Notes under the pieces: model-generated
What the model was told of the DNA's origin: nothing
Database searches by the model: none
What the model saw: the letters and a program-made list of their open reading frames with translations, nothing else
Source of the DNA: a virus
Lineage: Duplodnaviria; Caudoviricetes
DNA length: 64,000 nt
Reading direction: 5' to 3' (one strand)
IMG/VR virus record: IMGVR_UViG_3300043812_000016
Span: 64,001-128,000 of that record
Part shown: positions 1,315 to 53,664 of the stretch, one piece after another
Position numbering within the stretch: the stretch's first letter is position 1
Layout of the letters: the number at the start of each line of letters is the position of its first letter
Program-made: the position numbers and the translations under genes

Positions 1315-1385
1315 AGTTTTTTATAATTTTGTCATGACTACTTCTACTAATTGTGCTATAATCATAAATGAAGGAGTTGATATTA

Positions 1386-2504
1386 ATGACTAGAAGAAAA
1401 ACTAATGAAGAATTTGTTAAACAGGTTAAAGAATTAGTAGGTGATGATTATACTTTTCTTGAACCTTATAAGAACAATAGAACTAAGTTATTAGTACGTC
1501 ATAATGTTTGTGGTAATGTGTATAGAGTTGTTCCTGATAGCTTTTTAAAGGGTCGTAGATGTCCTAAGTGTCGTAGGAAAGAAGTAACAAATAAGAGGCG
1601 TATGTCTAATGATGAGTTTATAAAACGTGTTAATGATTTAGTTGGTGATGAATACTCTGTATTAGAACCTTATGTTAATTCTCAAACACCTATTTTGATT
1701 AAACATAATGTTTGTGGTCATGTATTACAAATGAAACCAAACTCCTTTTTAAATGGTAGTCGTTGTAAATATTGTGCACATAATGTAAGATTAACTACGG
1801 ACGAGTTTAAAGATAGGATTAGTGGAATATATGGAAATGACTATACTGTTTTAGGCGATTATGTTAATTCCCATACGCCTATATTAGTTAGACACAACAT
1901 TTGTCACCATACTTATACAGTTAGACCTATGAATATAATGAGAGGTCAGAGATGTCCTTATTGCTTTAAGACTCCTAAAAAGACTACTAAGGAATTTCAA
2001 ATAGAATTGAATGAAATATATGGAAGAGGAGTTTATACAGTAGTCAGTCCTTATCGTGGGGCAAAAAAGAAAATAATGCTCAAACATAAGTGTGGCTATG
2101 TTTGGGGAACAAAGCCTAATTGGATGCTATCAAAAAGAGGTGGTTGTCCTATGTGCAATACCCCGCATGGAGAACTTATAATTAATAATATTTTAAAAGA
2201 CAGTGCTATATCTTATGAGCATCCTAAGAAGTTTAGTGACTTATTAGGCGTTGGCGGTTTTCCTTTGCATTATGACTTTTATATAGACGATCAGAGGGTA
2301 TTAATTGAATATCAAGGATTACAACACTATGAGCCTATTGATCATTTTGGTGGAAAAGAACAATTTAAGAAACAGCAGTATCATGATAAGTTAAAGCGCA
2401 AGTATGCAAAAGCTAACGGTTATAATTTAATTGAAATACCATATTCTTGTGATACTTACAATGATATAAAGAAGTGCTTAATTGAAGGTGGTTTAAAACT
2501 ATGA
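1386..2504 (+). CDS. Free-standing putative homing endonuclease: 4 Zn-ribbon repeats plus C-terminal Vsr/DUF559-like PD-(D/E)XK nuclease
   Basis: Four repeats of about 60-70 aa (EF..YxxL..Y....(I/L).vrHxxCG...CPxC). C-terminus LHYDFYI...IEYQGLQHY...HDKLKRKYA...LIEIPY. RBS AAGGAG favours the start at 1386. TG-TATAAT promoter just upstream. Confidence 0.8.
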   Translation: MTRRKTNEEFVKQVKELVGDDYTFLEPYKNNRTKLLVRHNVCGNVYRVVPDSFLKGRRCPKCRRKEVTNKRRMSNDEFIKRVNDLVGDEYSVLEPYVNSQTPILIKHNVCGHVLQMKPNSFLNGSRCKYCAHNVRLTTDEFKDRISGIYGNDYTVLGDYVNSHTPILVRHNICHHTYTVRPMNIMRGQRCPYCFKTPKKTTKEFQIELNEIYGRGVYTVVSPYRGAKKKIMLKHKCGYVWGTKPNWMLSKRGGCPMCNTPHGELIINNILKDSAISYEHPKKFSDLLGVGGFPLHYDFYIDDQRVLIEYQGLQHYEPIDHFGGKEQFKKQQYHDKLKRKYAKANGYNLIEIPYSCDTYNDIKKCLIEGGLKL

Positions 2505-3718
2505 CAAAAATAGACCAAGAACAGATTGGATTTAAGAAAGTTAATTCCCTAGACTTACATGGATTAATGGTTGACTATCATTATTTACACCGAGTAGTAG
2601 CTTGTAAGTATGCTTATGGAATGTACTACCAAAATCAATTAGTAGGAATGGTTACCTATACTCATGTACGTAAGTCTTTAGCTTCTTCAATCTCGCCTTT
2701 AGCTAATAAAGATAATACTTTAGAATTATCTCGATTATACATAAAAGACGAAGTAAGCCAAAACTTAAAGAATATTACTTCTAAGTTTGTTTCATGGACT
2801 TTAAGACAATTAAAGCAAGAACAAGATGGTAATTGGTTTATTATCTCCTTTGCTGATCAAGGTATGCACCATACAGGAGCAATTTACCAAGCTACTAACT
2901 TCTTATACTGTGGAACAACAGATTCTGGTATCTTTTGTTATAATGGACCAGATAAGAAAGGTGGTAAATGGGTTAAAGGACATCACTACCGTTTCTTTAT
3001 CCTACGTTCAATTAAGTATCGTTACATTATGTTCTTAGGTTCTAAGACGTTTAAGAAACAAGCCCGTAAGACCCTTAAATTTGAGATTGAACCTTATCCT
3101 AAACAAGATAGCATTCACTACTCAGTAGGTGATACAGAAGAACGTTTAATCCGTGATCGTCAAGAAAATAAGGTTTATACAGAAACTGAATTACTTAAAG
3201 CTTTTCCTAACTATGATTGGAATGGAGATAATGGAGAAGTAGTTAAACCTATTAAGCCTAAGGTTGTTAAAAAGGTTAATCAACACTTTGCCCCAGTCTA
3301 TGCTATCAGCACTAAAACTAATCAAGTCTTTCAGTTTGAGTCTATTCGCTCCTGTGCAGAAACTCTAAATGTAGGTGAACGTAATATTAAGCACTGCTTA
3401 GCTGATAAGAAAGGTTCTCTTGGTGGTTTTGTCTTTTGCAGACCAGATGATTACACCTCAGAGCTTGCTAAGGAATTAGTAGAAAACGCTAAGAAGAGTC
3501 CTAAGTATAATCATGATTTCATCGTTGATGGTAACTGGGTAGAGGGAATGACTAAAGTTCGAGAGATTGTAGGAGCTAGTCGTTCTTCTATTCATAGGGC
3601 AATTGATGTTAACCGTAGAGAGGTTAAAGGACACACAATTGATATTCCTAAGCCTAAGGATATTGTTAATCATTATAAGTCTGTTTATCAACCTTTAGTT
3701 ACATATTTAATTAGTTAA
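2501..3718 (+). CDS. Mom-like (GNAT-fold) DNA modification protein with C-terminal NUMOD1-like HTH domains
   Basis: YHYLHR, LELSRL and IISFADQGMHHTGAIYQATNFLYCG match the Mu Mom family pattern. C-terminal FESIRSCAETLNVGERNIKHCL resembles a NUMOD1 HTH. ATGA overlap with the upstream nuclease and its own RBS (GAAGGTGG). Confidence 0.78.
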   Translation: MTKIDQEQIGFKKVNSLDLHGLMVDYHYLHRVVACKYAYGMYYQNQLVGMVTYTHVRKSLASSISPLANKDNTLELSRLYIKDEVSQNLKNITSKFVSWTLRQLKQEQDGNWFIISFADQGMHHTGAIYQATNFLYCGTTDSGIFCYNGPDKKGGKWVKGHHYRFFILRSIKYRYIMFLGSKTFKKQARKTLKFEIEPYPKQDSIHYSVGDTEERLIRDRQENKVYTETELLKAFPNYDWNGDNGEVVKPIKPKVVKKVNQHFAPVYAISTKTNQVFQFESIRSCAETLNVGERNIKHCLADKKGSLGGFVFCRPDDYTSELAKELVENAKKSPKYNHDFIVDGNWVEGMTKVREIVGASRSSIHRAIDVNRREVKGHTIDIPKPKDIVNHYKSVYQPLVTYLIS

Positions 3719-3725
3719 AATAGAT

Positions 3726-3747
3726 GACTGTTAATTCAGTCTTTTTT
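3726..3747 (+). terminator. Rho-independent terminator
   Basis: GACTG-ttaatt-CAGTC followed by T6. Confidence 0.6.
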
Positions 3748-3760
3748 ATTTAATCTTTTT

Positions 3761-3802
3761 GTATAAAAGTAGTTGAAAATTCAACTAAAAGTGTTATACT
3801 TA
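3761..3802 (+). promoter_or_regulatory. SigA-type promoter with a palindromic operator over the -35 (copy 1)
   Basis: TTGAAA-16 nt-TATACT with an extended TG. Palindrome TAGTTGAA-aa-TTCAACTA at 3770-3787. Near-identical copy at about 23007. Confidence 0.75.
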
Positions 3803-3832
3803 TAATTGAAATAAGGAAAGGAAGTTATTAAG

Positions 3833-4396
3833 ATGAGAATGATTAAGACTTCAACGGCTGGTTATATTTCGGTAATTCAATTTGTAATGGGTGCTTGGTT
3901 TGGGTATTCAATGCTAATGGCAATTATCTCTGGAGTGCTTACGTGGTTTGTGCTCAATTGTTTTGGCGTTGATATTGAGCTTGATAATTCATCAACTGAA
4001 CAGGATAATGTAGACACTGAAAATAATAAAGAAACTGCTAAGACACGAGAAGAATTAAAAAACAAGTAGAAGATCAGTTTAATAGTAGAAATAGCTATGC
4101 TAGAAAATAGGAAAGAGTTGTTAAATAAGATTGATTAGCTTTCTTATGGTAGTGTTAATTTTGTTAAGAGGTTGTTAAGTATGGAAAAGAAGTATGAAGA
4201 TTACTTTAATTTCATTAAGACTATGCTAATTCTTAACTCTAATGAAGAAGAATCTACTTTTTCATTGGATGTTAAAATGAAAATGATTAGAGAGCAAACT
4301 AGAGTGTTGCTTGAGCGAGAGTTAACTGACTATGCTAACGAAATGACTGAACAGCATAACAAGTACGTTGAAAAGTTGAGGGCTAAATTATCATGA
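3833..4396 (+). pseudogene. Membrane-anchored hypothetical protein interrupted by two in-frame TAG codons
   Basis: ORFs 3833-4069 and 4172-4396 share a frame. The only stops between them are TAG 4067-4069 and TAG 4136-4138. Confidence 0.5.
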
Positions 4397-12657: not shown

Positions 12658-15600
12658 ATGTCAGTGTCACGATATACAGTAAAACTTGATATTGGCGATG
12701 GTCGTTTTAAATCTCTTGCTAGTCAGTTAAACAGATTAAATAAAGAAATTGATCGGGTCTATCAACGAGGTCAAGATAATAACAATACTGTAAGTGACAA
12801 AGACTTAACTAACTTACAAAGTCATTTATCTGGTCTTGTACAGGCAATTGATGATAAAAAGCAACGGACTAATGAACAATTAGATCAAGCAAGGATTGTT
12901 AATGATACAGACCAGATTGCTAAATTTTTAGACGAATTAAAAGAGTTGACAGACGCTGGTAAGGAGTCTAATCAACTCTTTTCTTCTTATAAATTTAATC
13001 AAGTAAACAATTATCGAGTTAATTCTTCAAGAGCATTTAGAACTAATGACTTCGATAAACTTAATTCTGATTTTCAACATGATTTAACTGATTTAAAAGA
13101 TAATATTGGTAAGTTAAGTAATCGTAGTAAGATTTTAGAAAGACGTTGGGATCGTGGCGTTTTTAATGGTGCGGTTACTTATGAACGGTGGCAAAAGTAT
13201 CAAGACCAAAATCAAACCCAAGCCAACGAGTATGATAATTATAATAATCAATATCAAGAATTAAAAAAGCAGTATGAAGACCAGTTACAACAATTAACTA
13301 AGGAACGAAATGTTTTAAATAATCAGATTGAGTCTGGTAAAGGTAGTCAAGATGATATTACTAAACGATCTGCATTAGACGAACAGATCATAAAAATGCG
13401 AAAGGTAGATCAGACTTTAAGTGATTTAGCTAATACACTCAACAATACTGGAAGTCGGATTAATCTCTCTAATGCTAAGCTACATGATAAACAGACTGTA
13501 GATACTGTTGTTTTACCCGCTAAGGATTCACTAGAAGGTTTTCTTAGTACTCATAAGCGAATTCTTACTCGCTCTGCTATTGTAGGTGCAGTTGGTAATA
13601 CTATACGTGCTTATAATACAGGAAATAGTCTTATTTTAAATAATTTTGATAATATTAAGTCAACTGTTTATGCTTCTGGTTTAGGAGAAAATAAGGTAGA
13701 AAATACTTTAGCAGACGCTGGATTTAGTATGGGCTATGGTTTAGATGAGATGAGTAATTATCTTAATAATTATACGTCCGCTACTGGTAATGCTAATTTA
13801 AGTCGAAATCAAATTAAAGACGTAACAAGGTCTTGGGCTGGATTGTCTCGATATTCTGGTGCTAATGATTCTACCACTCAAAACTTGGAATACGTAAGTG
13901 CTATGACCTCATTAGCTGGTACTAAAGAATTTAGTAGCTTAGCGAATGCAATTCAAAATGAGATTACTAATTCTGGTATGAATGCAAAGGCTAATGAGCA
14001 ACAACAAGCCCTAGCTAATATGTATCAAACAGCTTTTAATGTTTCTGGTAGTACTTTATCAACTAGAGATCAAAAAGAAATTGCTGGTTTTCAAGGGGTT
14101 ATGGCTCAAACCGGTAAGTCTGAATTACAAGGACAACAGGGGGCGCAAGCCTATGCTGGTTTAGTCTCAGCCTTTCAGCCTAGTAACATAGCCTCTCTTA
14201 GGTTATTTACTGGCAATGATCCAGCTTATCAAACAAGAGAAGGTCATGCTCAAGCTATTTTTGATATGCAGGACGCTTCTAAACATCCATACAAATATAA
14301 GACTGCTATTGATAACCTTTTAAGAAATGCTAAGACACAAGCTCGTACTAAAAACGGTGATGTTACAATTGCTTCTGCTAATCTTTATAAATTATCAAAA
14401 GAGAGCGGTGGTAATCTTTCACCTCAACAAGCTAAAGACTTAGTAGAGCTTTATAAGCATAAGAAGTTTACTAAGAAGAATGTTGATAAGATTGTTAAGG
14501 GTAGTGGCAAAGGAAATAAAGATAAATATGATAAAACTGGTGCTAAGACCATTCAGCAACAGCAAAAGGCTATTCAAGAAAGTGAAGTTAAAGCTTCCCA
14601 TGCTTTAAATCATTTCACCCATAAGCTTAATTGGATAAATAAGACTTTTTGGATTAGTAATATTATGTCTGGAGTAGGAACGTCTATAGGTGTTTCTATG
14701 TTAGGTGATCTAGGAGTAGGTCTTATTTATGGAGGTTATGCTAAGAGTGGTTATCAAAAGATAGCAGGTAGTCTTAAGAATCGAGGACTTAAAGGTACTT
14801 TATCTGCTATTAAAGGTAAGGGTAGTAGCCTAAAAGATTCCTTAATTTCGATTATAAGCAACGCTAAGAGCGATAAGTCTAGTTCCAGTGTATCTGGTAC
14901 TAAAATGATTAAAAGAGCTAAATCGGGGCTTAAAATTAATCCTACGACACTTGTAAAATCTGGATCTAAAGTTCCTGCTAGAAAGATAGGTAAAGCCGGT
15001 GCTTTAATTGGTGTTGGTATGGGTGCTTATGCTTTATATGATAGTTATAAGAATGATAATAAAGCTCATGCTTCTACAGTTAACCCTAAAGAAGATAATT
15101 CTCGTTCTAAGAATAAGAAACAGTCTAATAAGAAAGCTTCTAGTATGACTGTTAGTAAGTTAGCTAAGCAGGTTCAGAACAAATATAAGCGACTTCATAA
15201 GTCAGAGTGGCGTTTAATTGATTATCTTAATACTTATTGGGATATTTTCTTGCGTAAAGCTAAAGAATCTGGTAGTAGCTCTAGCTCTAGTGATGATGTT
15301 GGTAGTGACTCAGGAGGAGATTCTGCTAAGTCCCCAGAAGAGTGGAAGGATGATATTAAAAAAGCCGCCAAAGCTATGGGACAGAATGTATCAGACGAAC
15401 AAGTCAATATGATTGTTTCCATGATTAAGGCTGAGTCTGGAGGAGATCCTACTGTTACTCAGCAGATTAGTGATATTAATTCGGCTAATGGTCATCCAGC
15501 TCAAGGTCTTTTACAATACGTCCCTTCAACTTTTGAACATTATGCAGTTAAGGGTCATACAAATATTAAATCTGGTTATGATCAATTACTTGCTCTATTT

Positions 15601-16007: not shown

Positions 16008-19000
16008 GTGAGCAAGCAAGAAGATACAAATATTAAGGTTACGGCTGATGTTGACCCCGCCAAAGCGAGTCTTCGAGAAATTGAGGATCTAGTTAGTTCT
16101 ACCCAACAGAAGATTAATCGGGTATTTAGTACTGTACAAGATAATAACGGTCAGATTAGTAATAAGCAGTTAGCTGGGGTTCAAAATGGCTTTGGTCGTT
16201 TAGACGAAGTTAAATCCGCTTTAGATAATGCTCTTAACCAAGCTAAGGCAACTCAAAATGGTTCTAAGCTAGAAGAAAGCATTAATACTTTAGCTCCTAA
16301 GTTAGATCTAGTTGTTAGTAGTTTAAGAGAGTTAAGATCTGGTAATAATAGTACTAAGCTTGATTCTATCTTTAATGCTCGTACAACTACTTCTCGTGCT
16401 TTTAGAGATGATAGTGCTACTATTCGTGGTGAACAGGGAGACTTTAGTCAACAAAATTTACATTATGAGAGTTTAGCTAGAGAAAGCCGATCTGATATTC
16501 ATAATTTAGCTAGTTCGCTTAAACGTGAAATGGGTAACTTAGACGTTGGTAGGAAGTCTGGTTATATTTCATATAATCGTTATCACCAGTACAAAGCCTC
16601 GTCTCAGTCTATTCAAAGCCGTTTGCAAGAACAACGAGATCGGTTTAATTCTCCTACTGGTGATATTGCTCGTTTTGCTAGTTATTATCAAAATTTACAA
16701 ACTCAAGGCAAAAGAAGCTAATAATGTTGCTTCTGCACCGGGTGCAACTACTGAGCAGGTTCGTTATGCTAGAGCTTTAGACGAACAAGTTAAGCACCTA
16801 GAAAAGGTTAATGAGCGATTTAAGAAGCAGGAAGAAGAATTACGAACTGCCGAAAAGAATTCAGAGTCGTTTAATGATCGCCTTAATGATACTCAAGGGA
16901 GTAACTATTGGCGATGATCCTAATTCTTTTATGGGTCAGCTTAATAAGCGTAAATATACTATTTTACGTGGTGCTATCTGCCTCGGAGGCGCTTCTATTG
17001 CTAGTGCTTATGCTCAAGGAAATAGTTTAAGACTTTCTAGTTTTGACGATATTAAGTCTACTGCATATGCTAATGGCGGTAGAGATGGTGAAGTTCTTAA
17101 TACCTTAGGCGACTATGGTTATAAATATGGTTATAATGGCGCAGAAATGGGTCAGTTTGCCAATGCTTATACTTCTACTACTGGTAATGTGGGGAGTACT
17201 AGAGATGTTGCTGGTGTTGCTCAGACGTGGGCTAGACAATCTCGTATCACAGGAGCTAATGCACAGAGTACTTTAGGGCTAGAACAGACTGTCGGTAATA
17301 GTGCTAATTTAAATTCTAGTCAGATGAGTAGTGTTGGTAATGCAATTACTAATTCTATTATTAATTCTGGTATGAGTGCTAAGGCAACTGAACAGCAACA
17401 AGGATTATCTATGTTAATCCAGAATGCAAGTAATCAGGGTCTTACTGCTCGTGATGAAAAGAACTTAGCGGGCTTCCAAGGTGCGATTGCTAGTGGCGGG
17501 GCACAATTCCAAGGTACACAAGGCGCTCAAAATACTATGCAGTTAGCTCAAGGATTAGGTAATGTTAATAACCCAATGATGAGACAGCTTTTTGCTCAGT
17601 CTAATCCTAGTCGCTATACAGGGGTAGAGGGTTCTGCTAATATGGTTTTTGATATGCAAGAGTTCCAGAAGAAACCATGGAAGATGAAAGGAATTCTCCA
17701 AAATGCTGAAAAAGATTTTGGTAGTCGCAAGGTTGCTTCCGCTAATCTATATCAGGCGACTGGTGTTCCGGCAGAGACTATTGAAAAGTGGATTCAATTA
17801 GCAGATTCTGGTAAGTTAGACAAGAAGCATATAGATAAGCTAGAAAAATCATCTAGTGCAAGTAAAGAAGGCGGGAAAGCAGATCAGGATTATGATAAGA
17901 CGGGAGCTTCACAACTTCAAAAGTATAATTCTGCATTAGCTGATTCTGCTATGAAAGCTAGTCAAGCTTTAGACGGTTTACGTGGTATTATTGCTAAGGC
18001 TTATAAGGCTGGTGGTGGGTTATCTCCATTTGTTTCTGGTGTCGCTAGTGCATTTGGTGCTGGTGCTGGAAATCTTATGAGTATCTATGCTCTTGATAGG
18101 CTAAGAGGTAAAGGTGGTTCTGGAGGTGCTGGAGGGTCTGGTATCTTAGGGCGTATCTTTAAAGGTGGTAAATCACCTGTAGAAAAGGAAGCTGAAAAAG
18201 CAACTGCTAAAGCTGGAGAAGAAGCTGTTAAAATTGGTGCTAAATCAGTTTCCCGTTCTGGTATCAAAGCTACTGCTTCTGGTATTCTAAAGTCTAGTAA
18301 ATTAAGAGGTTTAGTTCGTGGTGCTAAGGCTGGACTACCGGGTGTTGGTGATTTAGTCTTTGGCGGTTTAGACTTAGCCACCTCTGTTGCAACTACTAAG
18401 AAAGGTACTAAAGCTCGTAGAAAGGCTGTTGGTTCTAGCTTAGGCTCATCTGCTGGTAGTGTTGCTGGTGGGGTTGTTGGTGGACTGATAGGTTCAATTT
18501 TCCCCGGTGCTGGTACTGCGGTTGGTGCAGTTGCTGGTAGTGTAGCTGGTGGCTGGTTAGGTGATAAGTTTGGTGGTTTCCTTGGTGGTAAGATAGGTAA
18601 GTCTAAGGATAAAGCTATTAATAAAGCTAAAGGACAATCACTTAGAGACGCTCGTAAGACTGCAAGTAAGTATAATAAGTCTGGTGGCGTACTAAGAGGT
18701 ATTCTAAAGAATGGTAAGCGATTCTTACCGGGGGTTGCTCTTGGTATTGCAGGCTTAGGCTTAATGGACGATTTCTTTGGAGGTAAAGCTAAAGCTTCCT
18801 CAAAGAAGGGCAGTGAGAAATCAGAAGCATGGCGTATTTTGCGTGGCTATGATAAAATGCTTGATCATGCTATGCGAGTAGTTCAATCTGCTAAGTCTAT
18901 TAAGAACGGTGGAGATTCTAGTTCTAAGAGTGACGACTCAGATATATCTGGTACTTCCGGTGAGGGAGAAAAGGCTATTCGGAGCGTTGCAAAAGCTATT

Positions 19001-22955: not shown

Positions 22956-22991
22956 AAGAAATAGAGGAATTAGATTCTCTATTTCTTTTTT
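22956..22991 (+). terminator. Terminator
   Basis: AAGAAATAGAG...CTCTATTTCTT followed by a T-run. Confidence 0.85.
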
Positions 22992-23006
22992 ATTTTTGTA
23001 TTTTTT

Positions 23007-23048
23007 GTACAAAAGTAGTTGAAAATTCAACTAAAAGTGTTATACTTA
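23007..23048 (+). promoter_or_regulatory. SigA-type promoter with a palindromic operator (copy 2)
   Basis: AAAAGTAGTTGAAAATTCAACTAAAAGTGTTATACTTA is identical to copy 1. Confidence 0.75.
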
Positions 23049-23078
23049 AAACATGAATTAGGGAAAGGAAGCATAACA

Positions 23079-23591
23079 ATGAAGAAAGGTAGTACATCTG
23101 ATTTAGTAGAAGATATTAATAAGAAATATGATCCAGAAACGATTAAGAAAACGTTGATTAAGTTTCAGCAATTGCAAGAATTGGGTTGGGAGATTATCAT
23201 TGATCCTGTAGAGAATGAGGCTTATAGTATTAAATCTGATGATGAAACAAAAATTGTTTATCGTCCTTATGTATATGCGCCTGATCGACATGGTGAAGAT
23301 TATATCTTGAACTTAGATACTTCTTTTGACTCATATTATAGTTATTTACAATGTTTAGTTGATACTGTTAAGGCTGTTTCTAAGTTAGATAATCATTATA
23401 ATTGTCCTTATTGCTCTATGATTAATGGAGAAGGTAAAAAGATAGAAATTGATAAAGATTCTTATATGAGATATAAGACTGATGGTGATATTATAAGGTT
23501 GATCGTTTATCGGAGTGATACTATTGAACCCGAAGAGGTACAGGATATTGACTCTAGTTATTGTATGATTTGTGGGAGGAAATTATCATGA
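23079..23591 (+). CDS. Hypothetical protein with split Zn-finger (CPYC...CMICG)
   Basis: RBS AAAGGA before ATG 23079. First gene of the small-gene island. Confidence 0.7.
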   Translation: MKKGSTSDLVEDINKKYDPETIKKTLIKFQQLQELGWEIIIDPVENEAYSIKSDDETKIVYRPYVYAPDRHGEDYILNLDTSFDSYYSYLQCLVDTVKAVSKLDNHYNCPYCSMINGEGKKIEIDKDSYMRYKTDGDIIRLIVYRSDTIEPEEVQDIDSSYCMICGRKLS

Positions 23592-28996: not shown

Positions 28997-30163
28997 ATGA
29001 GTAGAAGAAAAACAATAGAAGAATTTAAGCAGGAAGTTTACAATTTAGTAGGTAACGAGTATACAGTAAAGTCTAATACATACGTTAATGCTCATACTAA
29101 GTTGTTGATAATACATAATAAGTGTGGCTATGGGTGGAAGGTTACACCTCTTAGATTTAATCGTGGACAACGTTGTCCCATCTGCTCTAAAAAGCCTAAG
29201 GATAGTGCTGAGAGGTTAGCCTATGAGGTTTTAATAGATACAAATAATAATTGGTATTTAGATTATAATACTAAATCTGATATTTTTCTTACTAGTAGGG
29301 TTAATCTTATTAATTGGAAGACAGGAGAATCAGTGAATTTAACTTGGAACAAATTTAGGGTAGGAGGCATTAATGACTCATCTTTTAAATATTTAGTTAG
29401 TAGTATTAAGAATAATTCAGTAAAGAAACGAGTTCAGTTAACTAAATTAGCTATTAGTAAAATTACTCCACCCTTAGTATTTAAACATCATTTTGACTCG
29501 ATTGTTAATGGTAATTATATGTTACTTAGTCCTTATCAAGGTTCAAATAAAAAGATTAAAGTGAAACATCTTGTCTGTGGAAATACTTATTGGGTAAGGC
29601 AGGATAAGTTTATTAATGAGGGCCAAAGATGTGCTTGGTGTGCTTCGCATCACAGCATTCAATCCTATAGTAAGAGACTTAGTGATGTTAGTAAGTCTCG
29701 ATATATACTTATAAATAATAATGAGTTTAAGAATAGCAAGTCTTATGCTACTTATTTGTGTACTCGTTGTGGACGTAGGTTTAAGCAACGTGCTGATTTA
29801 ATGTTGCAGGGGTATGGTTGCCCTTATTGTAATCAGTCTACTGGGGAGAGATTAGTTGATAGGGTCCTTTCACAGGTCTACCAATTAGAGGAGTCTCAAG
29901 ATTTTTACTATGGTTATGTATTGCCTAATAAATTACATTTAGACTTCTATTTACCTTCATCTAACTTAGCTATTGAATATGATGGTAAACAACATTATGT
30001 ACCTGTAGACTATTTTGGTGGAGAAGAAGGATTTAAAAAGATTCAAGATAGGGATAGAAAAAAAGATAAGTATTGTAAGGAGTGTGGTATCAAGCTAATT
30101 AGGATTCCCTATACTATTAATACCTATAGAGGGATAAAAGAGCTACTAGCCTCTTACCTGTGA
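28997..30163 (+). CDS. Free-standing putative homing endonuclease (Zn-ribbon repeats plus Vsr/DUF559-like nuclease)
   Basis: MSRRKTIEEF start and three Cys/His repeats. C-terminal LHLDFYLP...IEYDGKQHY...RDRKKDKYC...LIRIPY. Has its own promoter and RBS. Confidence 0.8.
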   Translation: MSRRKTIEEFKQEVYNLVGNEYTVKSNTYVNAHTKLLIIHNKCGYGWKVTPLRFNRGQRCPICSKKPKDSAERLAYEVLIDTNNNWYLDYNTKSDIFLTSRVNLINWKTGESVNLTWNKFRVGGINDSSFKYLVSSIKNNSVKKRVQLTKLAISKITPPLVFKHHFDSIVNGNYMLLSPYQGSNKKIKVKHLVCGNTYWVRQDKFINEGQRCAWCASHHSIQSYSKRLSDVSKSRYILINNNEFKNSKSYATYLCTRCGRRFKQRADLMLQGYGCPYCNQSTGERLVDRVLSQVYQLEESQDFYYGYVLPNKLHLDFYLPSSNLAIEYDGKQHYVPVDYFGGEEGFKKIQDRDRKKDKYCKECGIKLIRIPYTINTYRGIKELLASYL

Positions 30164-31125: not shown

Positions 31126-32973
31126 TTGAAAAAATTAACTTTTGAAGAATTTAATTATAGGGCACAGCGTATGCTAGGATCTAGTTATGTTTTTTACCCT
31201 CCATATAAGGATATGAAAACGCCTATTAAATATAAGCATTTAGTGTGTGGGACTACTGGAACTTTAATTCCTGATAATATTTTTAGAGGTAAAGCTAAAT
31301 GTAAGTATTGTAGTATGAGGAGGAGATCTGGTAGACGTATGATAACAGACGATGAGTTTAGGAAGAGGCTACATAAAGTTCGCCCTAGCGATGATATTAT
31401 TTTACTTGAGCCTATACATGGTATTTTTAAGAAAACCAAGGCAAAATGTCTCGTGTGTGGGTATGGTTCAAAAGGTGAATGGACTCCTCTTCCAGTTAAC
31501 TTATTAAAGGGTAAAGGGTGTCCTAATTGTGCAGGTAATGCTCCTAAAACACCAGATAGTGTAATTAAAGAAGTTAGAGATTTAGGGAATGGTGAGTATG
31601 AATTATTAGGAACTAAGAGAACTAAAAAAGATGGTTTATGGTTACATTTACTCCATAAAGAGTGCGAAAATGATTATTGGGTTCGTGACTATAGTTTCAT
31701 ACATGGTTATCGTTGTAAATTTTGTGCTAACAAAGCAACAGGCGACAGATGTAGGCTATCCTTAGACGAAGTTAAGCAACGAATTACAAGGGTTGCTGAT
31801 GGTCGTTATACATATGTAAGTGGTAATTATAAGAACAACCAAAGCCCTATCTATGTAAGGCACAACGTATGTGGTACTGTGTTTAAAACCACATGGGGGC
31901 AACTTAGTGCTAATAAGGGCTTGTGTCCTAATTGTGGGTCTTCTAATGGTGAACAGGCGATTATGAACTATTTAGTATCACACAGGGTTAGTTACTCTTA
32001 TGGCTACTTAATTCCAGACTTAATAGATAAGAAAAATCTTCACTTTGACTTCTGGTTGCCTCAAGTCAATACTGCTATAGAATATGATGGTCAACAGCAT
32101 TTTAAGCCTGTCGATTTGTTTGGAGGTAAAGAGCGCTATGAATTACAGAAGAAACACGATAGGATGAAAGATGATTACTGTAAGAAAAAAGGTATTAATT
32201 TAATTAGGATTAAGTATAATGAAAATATTAAAGATACTTTAAATTGTTATCTTTTACCTCTAGTAGATAAGCTTAGTGATGTTGATTTTAGAAAGGTAGA
32301 AAGTACAGAGCTTAATGAGTTAATGATTAAGTATCATTATTTACACCGTAAAGTGACTACTTCTTATTGTTATGGTTTATATTATCGAGGAAGTCTGGCA
32401 GGAATGGTAACATATACGAGACCTAGAATTAGCCTTGCTCAGTCAATCTCGCCTTTAGCTAATAAAGATAACACCCTAGAATTATCCCGATTATACATAA
32501 AAGACGAAGTAAGCCAAAACTTAAAGAATATTACTTCTAAGTTTGTCTCATGGACTTTAAGACAATTAAAGCAAGAGCAAGATGGCAACTGGTTTATTAT
32601 CTCTTTTGCCGATCAAGGTATGCACCATACGGGAGCAATCTATCAAGCTACTAATTTCTTATACTGTGGGACTACTAAACATCGTGAATACTCTTGGAAT
32701 GGATATGGTAAGCATGGCGGTGTATGGGAAAAAGGTCATTACTATAGGTATATGATAATTAGTCCTATCAAATATCGTTACATTATGTTCTTAGGATCAA
32801 AGACTTTTAAGAAACAAGCCCGTAAGACCCTTAAATTTGATATTGAACCTTATCCTAAACAAGATAGCGTTCACTATTCTGTAGGTGATACAGAGGAAAG
32901 ACTAATTCGAGACCGAGAAACTGGTAAGATTTGGAAAGAGTCTGAGTTAGTTAAACATCTAAAGAAAGATTAA
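31126..32973 (+). CDS. Fusion protein: Zn-ribbon repeats, Vsr/DUF559-like endonuclease and Mom-like GNAT domain
   Basis: Four Cys/His repeats, then LHFDFWLP...IEYDGQQHF...HDRMKDDYC, then YHYLHR...LELSRL...FADQGMHHTGAIYQATNFLYCG in one frame. Promoter TTGAAT...TATAAT and RBS AAGGA upstream. Confidence 0.85.
   Translation: MKKLTFEEFNYRAQRMLGSSYVFYPPYKDMKTPIKYKHLVCGTTGTLIPDNIFRGKAKCKYCSMRRRSGRRMITDDEFRKRLHKVRPSDDIILLEPIHGIFKKTKAKCLVCGYGSKGEWTPLPVNLLKGKGCPNCAGNAPKTPDSVIKEVRDLGNGEYELLGTKRTKKDGLWLHLLHKECENDYWVRDYSFIHGYRCKFCANKATGDRCRLSLDEVKQRITRVADGRYTYVSGNYKNNQSPIYVRHNVCGTVFKTTWGQLSANKGLCPNCGSSNGEQAIMNYLVSHRVSYSYGYLIPDLIDKKNLHFDFWLPQVNTAIEYDGQQHFKPVDLFGGKERYELQKKHDRMKDDYCKKKGINLIRIKYNENIKDTLNCYLLPLVDKLSDVDFRKVESTELNELMIKYHYLHRKVTTSYCYGLYYRGSLAGMVTYTRPRISLAQSISPLANKDNTLELSRLYIKDEVSQNLKNITSKFVSWTLRQLKQEQDGNWFIISFADQGMHHTGAIYQATNFLYCGTTKHREYSWNGYGKHGGVWEKGHYYRYMIISPIKYRYIMFLGSKTFKKQARKTLKFDIEPYPKQDSVHYSVGDTEERLIRDRETGKIWKESELVKHLKKD
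32443..32916 (+). repeat. Dispersed repeat: Mom-like core shared with 2687-3160
   Basis: 32443-32676 and 2687-2920 encode 78 identical aa with only synonymous differences. 32767-32916 and 3011-3160 encode 48 of 50 identical aa. Confidence 0.92.
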
Positions 32974-33094
32974 GGGGAATTAAGAAAGAGGTATAACAAC
33001 GAAACTGTTGGAGAATATTCTTTCTTTTTATAATTAAGTATTGACAACCTGTCTATTCTATTGTATTATAATAGCTGTAAAGGAGTTGTTAAGT

Positions 33095-33709
33095 ATGCGA
33101 AGAAAAACTGATAAAGAATTTAAACAAGAATTGCATGATTTAGTAGGTGATGAATATACAGCTTTAGATCATTATGAGAAAGGAACAATTAAGATTCATA
33201 TTAAGCATAATAAATGTGGTCATGTGCTATATGTTTATCCTTTGGCTTTTTTACAGAGACCTCACTGCCCTTATTGTAGTGGTCGCCCACGTTACACCCC
33301 AGCAGAGTATAGGGAGTATGTAAAAGAAATGACTAATGACGAATACGAGGTTTTAGATGATTTTGTAAATAATAGGACACCAATTCGTTATAAGCATAAG
33401 AAATGTGGTACTGTATTTAAGACTCTTCCTAATACCTTTAGTGTTGGGTCTGCTCGCTGTCCTGTATGTGCTAATAAGATTCGTTCTAAGAAGCAATCCT
33501 TAACTACTGAGGAATTTAAGGAGCGAGTTCGTAACTTACCACATGGAGACGAATTCGAAGTTCTATCTGAATATAAAGGCTACCACCAACGTGTTACCTT
33601 TAAGCATAAGAAGTGTGATACTGTATGGATGACTACCCCAGCCAGTTTCTTTCTTAGTAAACATAAGTGTCCGGTATGTGCAATTAATTCAACTAGAAAG
33701 GTTAAGTAA
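33095..33709 (+). CDS. Zn-ribbon repeat protein lacking the nuclease domain
   Basis: MRRKTDKEF start and three HxKC...CPxC repeats, ending right after the third. TTGACA promoter and AAGGAG RBS upstream. Confidence 0.75.
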   Translation: MRRKTDKEFKQELHDLVGDEYTALDHYEKGTIKIHIKHNKCGHVLYVYPLAFLQRPHCPYCSGRPRYTPAEYREYVKEMTNDEYEVLDDFVNNRTPIRYKHKKCGTVFKTLPNTFSVGSARCPVCANKIRSKKQSLTTEEFKERVRNLPHGDEFEVLSEYKGYHQRVTFKHKKCDTVWMTTPASFFLSKHKCPVCAINSTRKVK

Positions 33710-52804: not shown

Positions 52805-52850
52805 AGGAGAGGTAAAATTATTGCCTCTCTTTTTATTTTTATCTTTTTAT

Positions 52851-52890
52851 ACAAAAACAGTTGAATATTTAACTAAAAGTGTTATAGTAG
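52851..52890 (+). promoter_or_regulatory. Degenerate third copy of the palindromic promoter, heading the replication module
   Basis: AAAAACAGTTGAATATTTAACTAAAAGTGTTATAGT, just after a terminator at 52805-52834. Confidence 0.65.
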
Positions 52891-52919
52891 AATTATCAAT
52901 AAAACGGGTTGGTGATGTA

Positions 52920-53664
52920 ATGTGTAATTATTTAAAAGAAGACTATGTATACTTGCTAGGACAAGCCTATGATTGTTTTAACTACACCTTAGCAGAAGAT
53001 AAGACAGCTATAGTAAATTATTTTGTTAAGTCTAATGAGTTAGATCAGCAGATTATGAATGATTTTTATGATTTAAGCTTAAAATTGCAAGAAAATCCCG
53101 TCTGGTTAATGTCTAGCGTTTTTGATTACTATTTATACCTTAATCGAAAACGTAAAACTATCCCGTTCATGCCTTTGGGTAACTTTAATCAAGAAATGAT
53201 TCTAAAGGCTTATGACGGAAAAGATAAATACCGAAAACTAACTAATAAAAACCTATATGTTACCTTAGACAACCTTTACTTAAAGGCTCTTAATATGCTA
53301 TTTAAAATTCCAATTAAGGAATTATATAGTGAAGAAAAGACTTATCTTAAAGAAAGAGTTTTTGACTATCGTAACACTTCTTATATTAGTGTTTCAATGG
53401 AAAAAGGTTAGAAGATTACTTCTAAAACGCTCTAATAAAACGTGGGATAATATGTTATTATTAGATGGTGTGGAGTATTTTGAACCAGTAATATTTTTGA
53501 TTTGTAAGGAGCCACATGAAGCCCTAAGTCATCATTTAGGAGTAACGGAATACAGCTATTACTATTATGGAATTAATAATGAAATAGAGCTTCGAGACCC
53601 AGATGAATTAAAGTATCTATTCAATGCTTACCATTATCTTAATCAGAGAGGATTAATAATTTAA
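52920..53664 (+). CDS. Hypothetical replication-region protein (apparent frameshift near 53401)
   Basis: Two overlapping ORFs join on removing one A in GGAAAAAGG. Confidence 0.55.

Follow-up and report, generated by a model that had tools for sequence, protein, structure and literature searches.

Paired Mom-family genes of a Herelleviridae-like phage exchange their cores and keep two distinct types of a 30-residue segment

The window analysed here is a stretch of 64,000 nucleotides (bases 64001-128000) of the caudoviricete record IMGVR_UViG_3300043812_000016, a genome of 143,482 bp rated complete by CheckV. It harbours two genes for proteins of the Mom family (termed copy 1 and copy 2), whose best-studied member is the DNA-modifying Mom protein of phage Mu; these are the only Mom-family domains detected by Pfam profile search in the whole 143-kb record. 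The major capsid protein is 65 % identical to its counterpart in Lactobacillus phage LfeInf, and the remaining protein matches are mostly to phages of Staphylococcus, Bacillus, Enterococcus and Listeria, which we take to be Herelleviridae-type myoviruses. The window phage is therefore referred to as a Herelleviridae-like virus (~143 kb) with a capsid nearest to that of LfeInf. Megablast of both Mom loci against the phage collection yielded no match, and identity to the closest phage proteins that carry a name does not exceed 36 %. Relatives were obtained from a scan of viral contigs, comprising orthologues of copy 1 (L003-L007) and of copy 2 (L008-L010); a metagenome scan with copy 2 matched solely a 152.7-kb contig that was already known. 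Both copies are also present in two further complete genomes (L004 with L009, and L006 with L010).

The two Mom genes are direct repeats on the + strand. Copy 1 (2501..3718, 405 aa) consists of a Mom domain of the subtype named A below (aa 1-233) and a DNA-binding tail of the I-HmuI NUMOD-like type, the latter scoring 26.4 bits and thus slightly under the Pfam cut-off of 27 bits. It overlaps by ATGA (2501-2504) with a 378-aa open reading frame (ORF; 1368..2504, + strand) encoding zinc-ribbon repeats (Pfam CapR, DUF4379) and a DUF2726-like nuclease. This first cassette has a promoter-like site (1334-1362) and terminator-like hairpins on both sides, i.e., the terminator of the capsid gene (1276-1305) and a hairpin at 3726-3741. 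In case of copy 2 (31126..32973, 615 aa), zinc-ribbon repeats and a DUF2726-like nuclease are fused in frame to a Mom domain of subtype B (aa 379-615); its orthologues are 90-95 % identical. The nuclease parts match PHROG families whose annotations read endonuclease, homing endonuclease or intron-encoded nuclease. Along each Mom domain follow (i) an N-block (copy 1, aa 26-62, 2576..2686; copy 2, 32332..32442), (ii) core 1 (aa 63-140, 2687..2920; 32443..32676, direct repeat D1 with a spacing of 29,756 nt), (iii) a 30-residue segment (type A, aa 141-170, 2921..3010; type B, 32677..32766), (iv) core 2 (aa 171-220, 3011..3160; 32767..32916) and (v) a Mom tail (aa 221-233, 3161..3199; 32917..32955). 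N-block and tail are subtype-specific, as judged from nucleotide distances.

Several architectural details of the two loci vary among the relatives. The region downstream of the copy-1 Mom domain (3200-3718) represents what is left of an I-HmuI-like HNH homing endonuclease, namely its DNA-binding part: a full module of NUMOD4, HNH_3 and NUMOD-like parts occupies this position in L004 (6001-7509) and in the more distant homologue P0023, and a short lysine-rich linker takes the place of the ~110-residue NUMOD4-HNH part in the window, L003, L005 and L006. Cassette 1 occurs in the split form with the ATGA overlap and in an in-frame fused form (nuclease-Mom-NUMOD, frames of 714-801 aa), which are a 4-nt indel apart; the indel lies just 5' of the Mom ATG, and this ATG is retained in both forms (window 2440-2560; L005:1157-1277; L006:5943-6063). 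Copy 2 is flanked by two zinc-ribbon paralogues (28997-30163 and 33041-33709), one of 388 aa with a nuclease end and without Mom, the other of 222 aa composed of repeats only and devoid of a nuclease domain.

BLASTP of the 405-aa against the 615-aa ORF produced a single ungapped alignment of 225 residues with 77 % identity, in which conserved and divergent blocks alternate sharply. An earlier note, made from the letters of this stretch alone, had described near-identical cores around a divergent segment of the same length, and its account of the pattern was borne out codon by codon. In core 1 all 78 residues are identical in spite of 17 synonymous changes, with no non-synonymous change (93 % nucleotide identity; synonymous divergence, dS, 0.49; non-synonymous divergence, dN, 0), and core 2 is identical at 48 of 50 positions (89 % nucleotide identity; dS 0.70, dN 0.026), amounting to 126 of 128 core residues. 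The two segment peptides, quoted correctly in that note, have only 12 of 30 residues in common (57 % nucleotide identity; dS 1.3, dN 0.55). The N-terminal part is divergent as had been described (56 % nucleotide identity over aa 9-62), and so are residues 221-233. When the 52 differing positions were permuted 200,000 times over the 225, the longest identical run did not exceed 51 residues as compared to 78 observed, so that the clustering of differences is far beyond chance. An assembly artefact was considered and rejected, since the mosaic was seen again in three complete genomes from different samples.

Comparison within and between the two sets of orthologues (window copies plus L003-L010, n=10; six of type A and four of type B) revealed that the cores are being exchanged between the two genes. 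Core 1 contains 53 variable sites, 26 of which are polymorphic in both copies and only 1 of which is fixed between them; in core 2, 14 of the 42 variable sites are shared polymorphisms and 2 are fixed. The segment has the opposite composition, with 31 fixed differences and 2 shared polymorphisms among 47 variable sites. Mean nucleotide distances follow the same pattern. For core 1 they amount to 0.089 within copy 1, 0.086 within copy 2 and 0.089 between the copies, i.e., at its silent sites the two genes are one population. The corresponding values are 0.072, 0.106 and 0.128 for core 2, and 0.056, 0.054 and 0.454 for the segment; the N-block differs by 0.07 among orthologues vs 0.435 between copies, and the tail (aa 221-233) by 0.06 vs 0.376. 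The earlier note had spoken of many synonymous changes in the core. Such changes are present, but they affect 7 % of the nucleotides, which is ordinary population diversity as found among orthologues and not ancient divergence. Individual traces of exchange are an exact tract of 181 nt common to L007 (copy 1) and L008 (copy 2) from one sample, and private states which L006 and L010, residing in one genome, have in common in core 2 and at residues 10-25. Furthermore, the cores of the two copies have derived states in common, among them a 2-residue insertion, which are found in none of the outside A or B homologues. Conversion tracts entering the subtype-specific patches were not found among the sampled genomes, and inside its own subtype every one of the patches shows strong conservation.

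The divergent patches belong to two subtypes with relatives of their own in other phages. Type A segments carry a CYNGP motif and are found in copy 1, P0002, P0022, P0023 and stand-alone proteins of ~254 aa such as L011, whereas type B segments carry WNGYGKHGG or a near variant (copy 2, P0003, P0009 and P0024). The copy-1 segment is identical to outside type A segments (P0022, P0023, P0002, L011, P0007) at 20-22 of 30 positions vs 12 of 30 to copy 2, and the copy-2 segment to outside type B segments (P0003, P0024, P0009) at 19-22 vs 9-13 of 30 to type A. In the cores, outside sequences are identical to either copy at 85-103 of 126 positions (66-81 %). Maximum-likelihood trees of the two kinds of columns are incongruent: with core columns, the two copies fall into a single clade (support 97/95) and an A/B split is rejected by the approximately unbiased (AU) test (p 1.1e-4), while patch columns (aa 26-62, 141-170 and 221-233) yield the A/B split (100/98.8) and reject the clade of copy 1 and copy 2 (AU p 1.2e-4), both p-values being weakened somewhat by the fact that the A/B groups were named post hoc from the alignment.

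Within each type, the segment peptide is identical in every orthologue despite silent polymorphic sites (7 in type A, n=6; 6 in type B, n=4), which indicates purifying selection on each segment type; the dimorphism of A and B is maintained. Hypervariability of the segment was rejected on account of this zero amino-acid change inside either type. Thus, the segment deserves the term variable, as used in the earlier note, insofar as it differs between the copies, but it is not freely variable and exists as two conserved types. That note had further left open whether purifying selection or gene conversion keeps the core. Shared polymorphisms, the lack of silent differentiation, the derived 2-residue insertion and the AU-tested incongruence together call for gene conversion; purifying selection acts as well and is insufficient alone. 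Ectopic recombination combined with purifying selection is therefore, with high confidence, the evolutionary mechanism behind the mosaic.

Assignment of both proteins to the Mom family is supported by profile and by fold. Pfam Mom (PF25680) scored 103.9 bits with copy 1 and 106.9 bits with copy 2 (gathering score 27.1). AlphaFold 2 (AF2) models of the Mom domain of copy 1 and of aa 379-615 of copy 2 had predicted local distance difference test (pLDDT) values of 94.2 and 94.6, respectively; the best structural match was Mu Mom (8bv8_A; Z 19.2, root-mean-square deviation 3.4, 186 residues), followed at a distance by other GCN5-related N-acetyltransferases (GNATs; Z at most 13.4), and Foldseek matched Mu Mom with E 1.5e-12. 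According to a profile alignment to 8bv8 (Mu residue number being the 8bv8 chain index plus 9) and to family alignments, Mu residues H58, Y59, R111, S124, D149 and Y159, all of which matter for the activity of Mu Mom, correspond to H27, Y28, R78, S94, D119 and Y129, which are the same in both copies; core 1 holds the counterparts of R111, S124, D149 and Y159.

The 30-residue segment is located at the site of a functionally important insertion of Mu Mom. In both AF2 models it is folded into two short strands (copy 1, 143-146 and 165-169) with an 18-residue loop between them, this loop having the lowest internal pLDDT (~79-83) of either model. It lies between the strands 135-139 and 172-179, which in these models are taken to be GNAT β6 and β7. 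In GNATs, the loop after β6 helps to form the acceptor-binding site. Profile alignment to 8bv8 places the flanking anchors YQATNF.Y.G and K.RY on Mu residues 159-168 and 214-217, so that the interval between them (139-171 in the window, 33 residues) is positionally homologous to Mu 169-213 (45 residues), including the Mu insertion at ~175-209. Across ~100 family members, entropy within the structured body peaks in the segment (3.15 bits vs 1.95 bits for core 1). The segment is also the only internal site of large indels, at which other members carry 13.4 additional residues on average. A count from sequence shows both types to be net basic (~+4 in type A, ~+3 in type B). A proposed equivalence of W157, present in both types, to Mu W181 was dropped, as alignments within the insertion are inconsistent. 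Mu Mom transfers glycine from Gly-tRNA(Gly) to the N6 of adenine in double-stranded DNA at SAS sites; its insertion is essential, as deletion abolishes activity, and an AlphaFold 3 model has it in the major groove of the DNA, next to the flipped adenine (Silva et al. 2026, PMC13219725). Considering its position at this insertion and its family-wide variability, DNA target recognition by the segment is a reasonable proposition, which we regard as plausible at about even chances.

On balance, the observations are probably best explained by two old subtypes whose cores are homogenised by gene conversion and whose segments act as target readers. According to this explanation, the phage retains two Mom-family enzymes of the old subtypes A and B, defined by the three patches (aa 26-62, 141-170 and 221-233). 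Non-crossover ectopic recombination, i.e., gene conversion, over a distance of 29.8 kb repeatedly overwrites both core blocks, which hold the catalytic residues, so that the cores of the lineage behave as one gene pool. A crossover between the direct repeats would delete ~30 kb of structural genes, and only conversion-type products should therefore survive. Tracts in the patches may be absent because they are blocked by the 43-45 % nucleotide divergence, or because hybrids are removed by selection. Between the anchors NF.Y.G and K.RY, the segment takes up the insertion site occupied in Mu by the major-groove element, and it would act like a target-recognition module. The present data show the mosaic, the existence of two subtypes, a continuing exchange of the cores and the homology in position; we infer in addition that both Moms are enzymatically active and differ in target specificity; they would then modify adenines in different sequence contexts by the same chemistry, resulting in wider protection of the phage DNA.

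A number of observations weigh against this explanation. The essential R151 of Mu aligns to G121 in both copies, and the consensus of the ~100-homologue profile is likewise not arginine at this position; H124, invariant among these homologues, has R154 as its Mu counterpart. The insertion is 12 residues shorter than that of Mu and is predicted to consist of strands and a loop, thus not resembling a helix-turn-helix, and its putative DNA contacts are extrapolated from Mu. Core-1 distances of same-genome pairs (0.073, 0.111 and 0.081) are no closer than those of cross-genome pairs (mean 0.089), and exchange could hence be partly between co-infecting genomes. The post hoc naming of the groups belongs here, too. 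Finally, the function of the segment could lie instead in selection of the aminoacyl-tRNA donor or in the shape of the dimer.

This last possibility, that the patches serve the choice of aminoacyl-tRNA donor (with a different adduct as the result) or form a self-association surface preventing mixed A/B dimers, is unlikely. Mu Mom acts as a dimer, the monomeric mutant W48A being nearly inactive, and its N-terminal residues affect activity and may bind tRNA (PMC13219725). Moreover, three separate subtype-specific patches would suit a surface or interface as well as a DNA reader. However, the tested dimer residues of Mu are N-terminal to the HY motif and hence outside the insertion, which the published model places on the DNA (PMC13219725). 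In addition, the helix at aa 16-25 shows no strict division by subtype: 8 shared polymorphisms are found at aa 10-25, where L006 is similar to copy 2.

The earlier note had suggested that the segment sets the specificity of each Mom for its partner nuclease. Each Mom would then shield exactly those sites that are targets of the nuclease beside it or fused to it, in analogy to restriction-modification (R-M) systems. Coupling of Mom to nucleases is real, recurrent and already in the literature: Mom-REase fusions are known from jumbo phages, and an R-M-like role has been proposed for them (Iyer, Anantharaman, Krishnan, Burroughs and Aravind 2021, PMC7824862). In agreement with this proposal, both window copies are coupled to a zinc-ribbon/DUF2726-like nuclease, copy 1 by the ATGA overlap and copy 2 by fusion, and more distant homologues, too, repeatedly contain Mom fused to homing-type nuclease modules. 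N-terminal zinc-ribbon modules, with or without a recognisable nuclease end, are present in copy 2, L006, P0024, P0025, P0026 and P0028, and an I-HmuI-like NUMOD4-HNH module is located C-terminally in L004 and P0023 and N-terminally in P0033.

A tuning of the segment to the partner nuclease is nevertheless unlikely. The copy-1 locus exists with three nuclease alleles (window/L004, L005 and L006/L007) that share only 36-48 % identity and vary in the number of repeats, whereas the type-A segment beside them is identical at 30 of 30 residues. Moms of both types are also found as shorter proteins (229-269 aa) without a fused nuclease domain, and the type-B homologue P0003 possesses zinc ribbons and no nuclease domain. 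The partner of copy 1 has Q at the acidic position of the conserved IEY(D/Q)G motif. In view of the three alleles beside an invariant type-A segment and of the Moms lacking a fused nuclease, the part of the earlier note concerning partner nucleases is not supported.

The nuclease alleles are situated between the capsid gene and Mom A (window 1368-2504; L005:294-1217; L006:4822-6000) and comprise three or four repeats; their distribution looks like replacement of a free-standing homing-type endonuclease in otherwise close phages. The motif IEY(D/Q)G.QH (window 2300-2330) has Q in the copy-1 partners of the window and L005, and D in copy 2, the 388-aa paralogue and L006. Judging from the sequence, Q in IEYQG may indicate reduced or altered nuclease activity.

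Purifying selection alone, i.e., an old divergence with constraint on every core residue and no recombination between the copies, would account for the absence of non-synonymous next to 17 synonymous changes in core 1 and for the location of the family's invariant residues in the cores. It is very improbable, because it leaves unexplained that silent core divergence between the copies equals the diversity of orthologues (0.089 vs 0.086-0.089) and that 26 of the 53 variable core-1 sites are polymorphisms in both copies. In addition, dS is 0.49-0.70 in the cores vs 1.3-1.7 in the patches, the silent sites of the latter being near saturation. Moreover, the lineage-specific core residues and the indel are shared by both copies and absent from outside A/B homologues, the AU test on the core data rejects the A/B split, and the outside homologues are only 66-81 % identical in the cores, which shows that the cores tolerate change. 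Alternatively, the copies could stem from a recent duplication, after which positive selection quickly remodelled the three patches. This reading can draw on the higher dN/dS in the segment (~0.4 vs 0 to 0.04 in the cores), but is hardly credible in view of the relatives of each patch type in other phages, the rejection of the copy 1 and copy 2 clade by the patch data (p 1.2e-4) and the near-saturated silent sites of the patches (dS 1.3-1.7). Shared polymorphisms and tree incongruence thus effectively exclude both scenarios.

Further repeats are present elsewhere in the window. An element of 95 nt occurs three times (3742-3836, 22988-23082 and 52830-52924; copies 65-77 % identical), with a conserved core, a promoter-like TTGAAA...TATACT and a 3' end coinciding with a start codon; it is probably a phage promoter plus leader in common use. 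A direct repeat of 85 nt (13933-14017 and 17327-17411, 74 % identical, 3.4 kb apart) is located within the structural-gene region. Rfam searches of positions 1-64000 of the window returned nothing at gathering thresholds.

As compared to Mu Mom (8bv8), the window proteins agree in Pfam family, fold, the equivalents of H58/Y59, R111, S124, D149 and Y159, and the position of the insertion between the same anchors. They differ in that they are only ~20-23 % identical to it, have the shorter insertion and a glycine for R151, and are encoded by two genes in one genome, both of them linked to modules of the homing-endonuclease type. The Mom-REase fusions of Iyer et al. 2021 (PMC7824862) resemble the window cassettes in coupling a Mom domain to a nuclease of the restriction-endonuclease fold in a phage. 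Two subtypes per genome, core homogenisation or a subtype-defining segment are not part of that report, and in the window lineage it is the nuclease alleles that vary and not the Mom segment. In the papers searched, we found no description of two Mom subtypes in one genome, of a homogenised shared core, or of a conversion-resistant subtype-defining insertion.

Two general phenomena are comparable, the first being the closest analogy and no statement of membership. DNA methyltransferases and HsdS subunits contain a variable target-recognition region between conserved motifs, and the Mom segments, according to the alignments, are similarly arranged as a variable block between conserved catalytic blocks, with position and family variability agreeing with such a role. 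The likeness to the multispecific C5-methyltransferases of Bacillus phages and to type I HsdS lies in a presumed specificity block between conserved blocks that can serve as substrates of recombination; Mom has another fold and chemistry, and its segment travels with two other subtype patches, no evidence of shuffling alone having been found. Concerted evolution, in which gene conversion between paralogues proceeds while selection preserves divergent functional patches, is generally known, and the shared polymorphisms, block-wise tree incongruence and sharp tract boundaries at divergent segments are in line with it. What distinguishes the present case is the setting, a lytic-type phage in which 29.8 kb separate the two genes and essential structural genes are situated between them.

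The chemistry of Mom has been worked out only recently, and the basis of target choice (SAS in Mu) is the problem on which these copies bear. The two proteins are natural chimeras, with cores identical at 126 of 128 residues and differences confined to three short patches, one of which corresponds in position to the insertion that presumably reads the major groove; specificity mapping is thereby narrowed to a few swaps. They also represent concerted evolution between distant phage paralogues, with tracts that stop at segments which appear to define function. Since the nuclease alleles are exchanged and the putative reader of Mom does not change with them, caution is advised against a simple R-M reading of Mom-nuclease cassettes. 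One may tentatively speculate that the Mom insertion between NF.Y.G and K.RY is a compact, exchangeable target-recognition element, by which adenine hypermodifications would be written at two motifs while conversion keeps the chemistry in step. If true, the phage would provide a natural experiment with one catalytic core and two readers, and thereby the first sequence-level handle on the target specificity of Mom.

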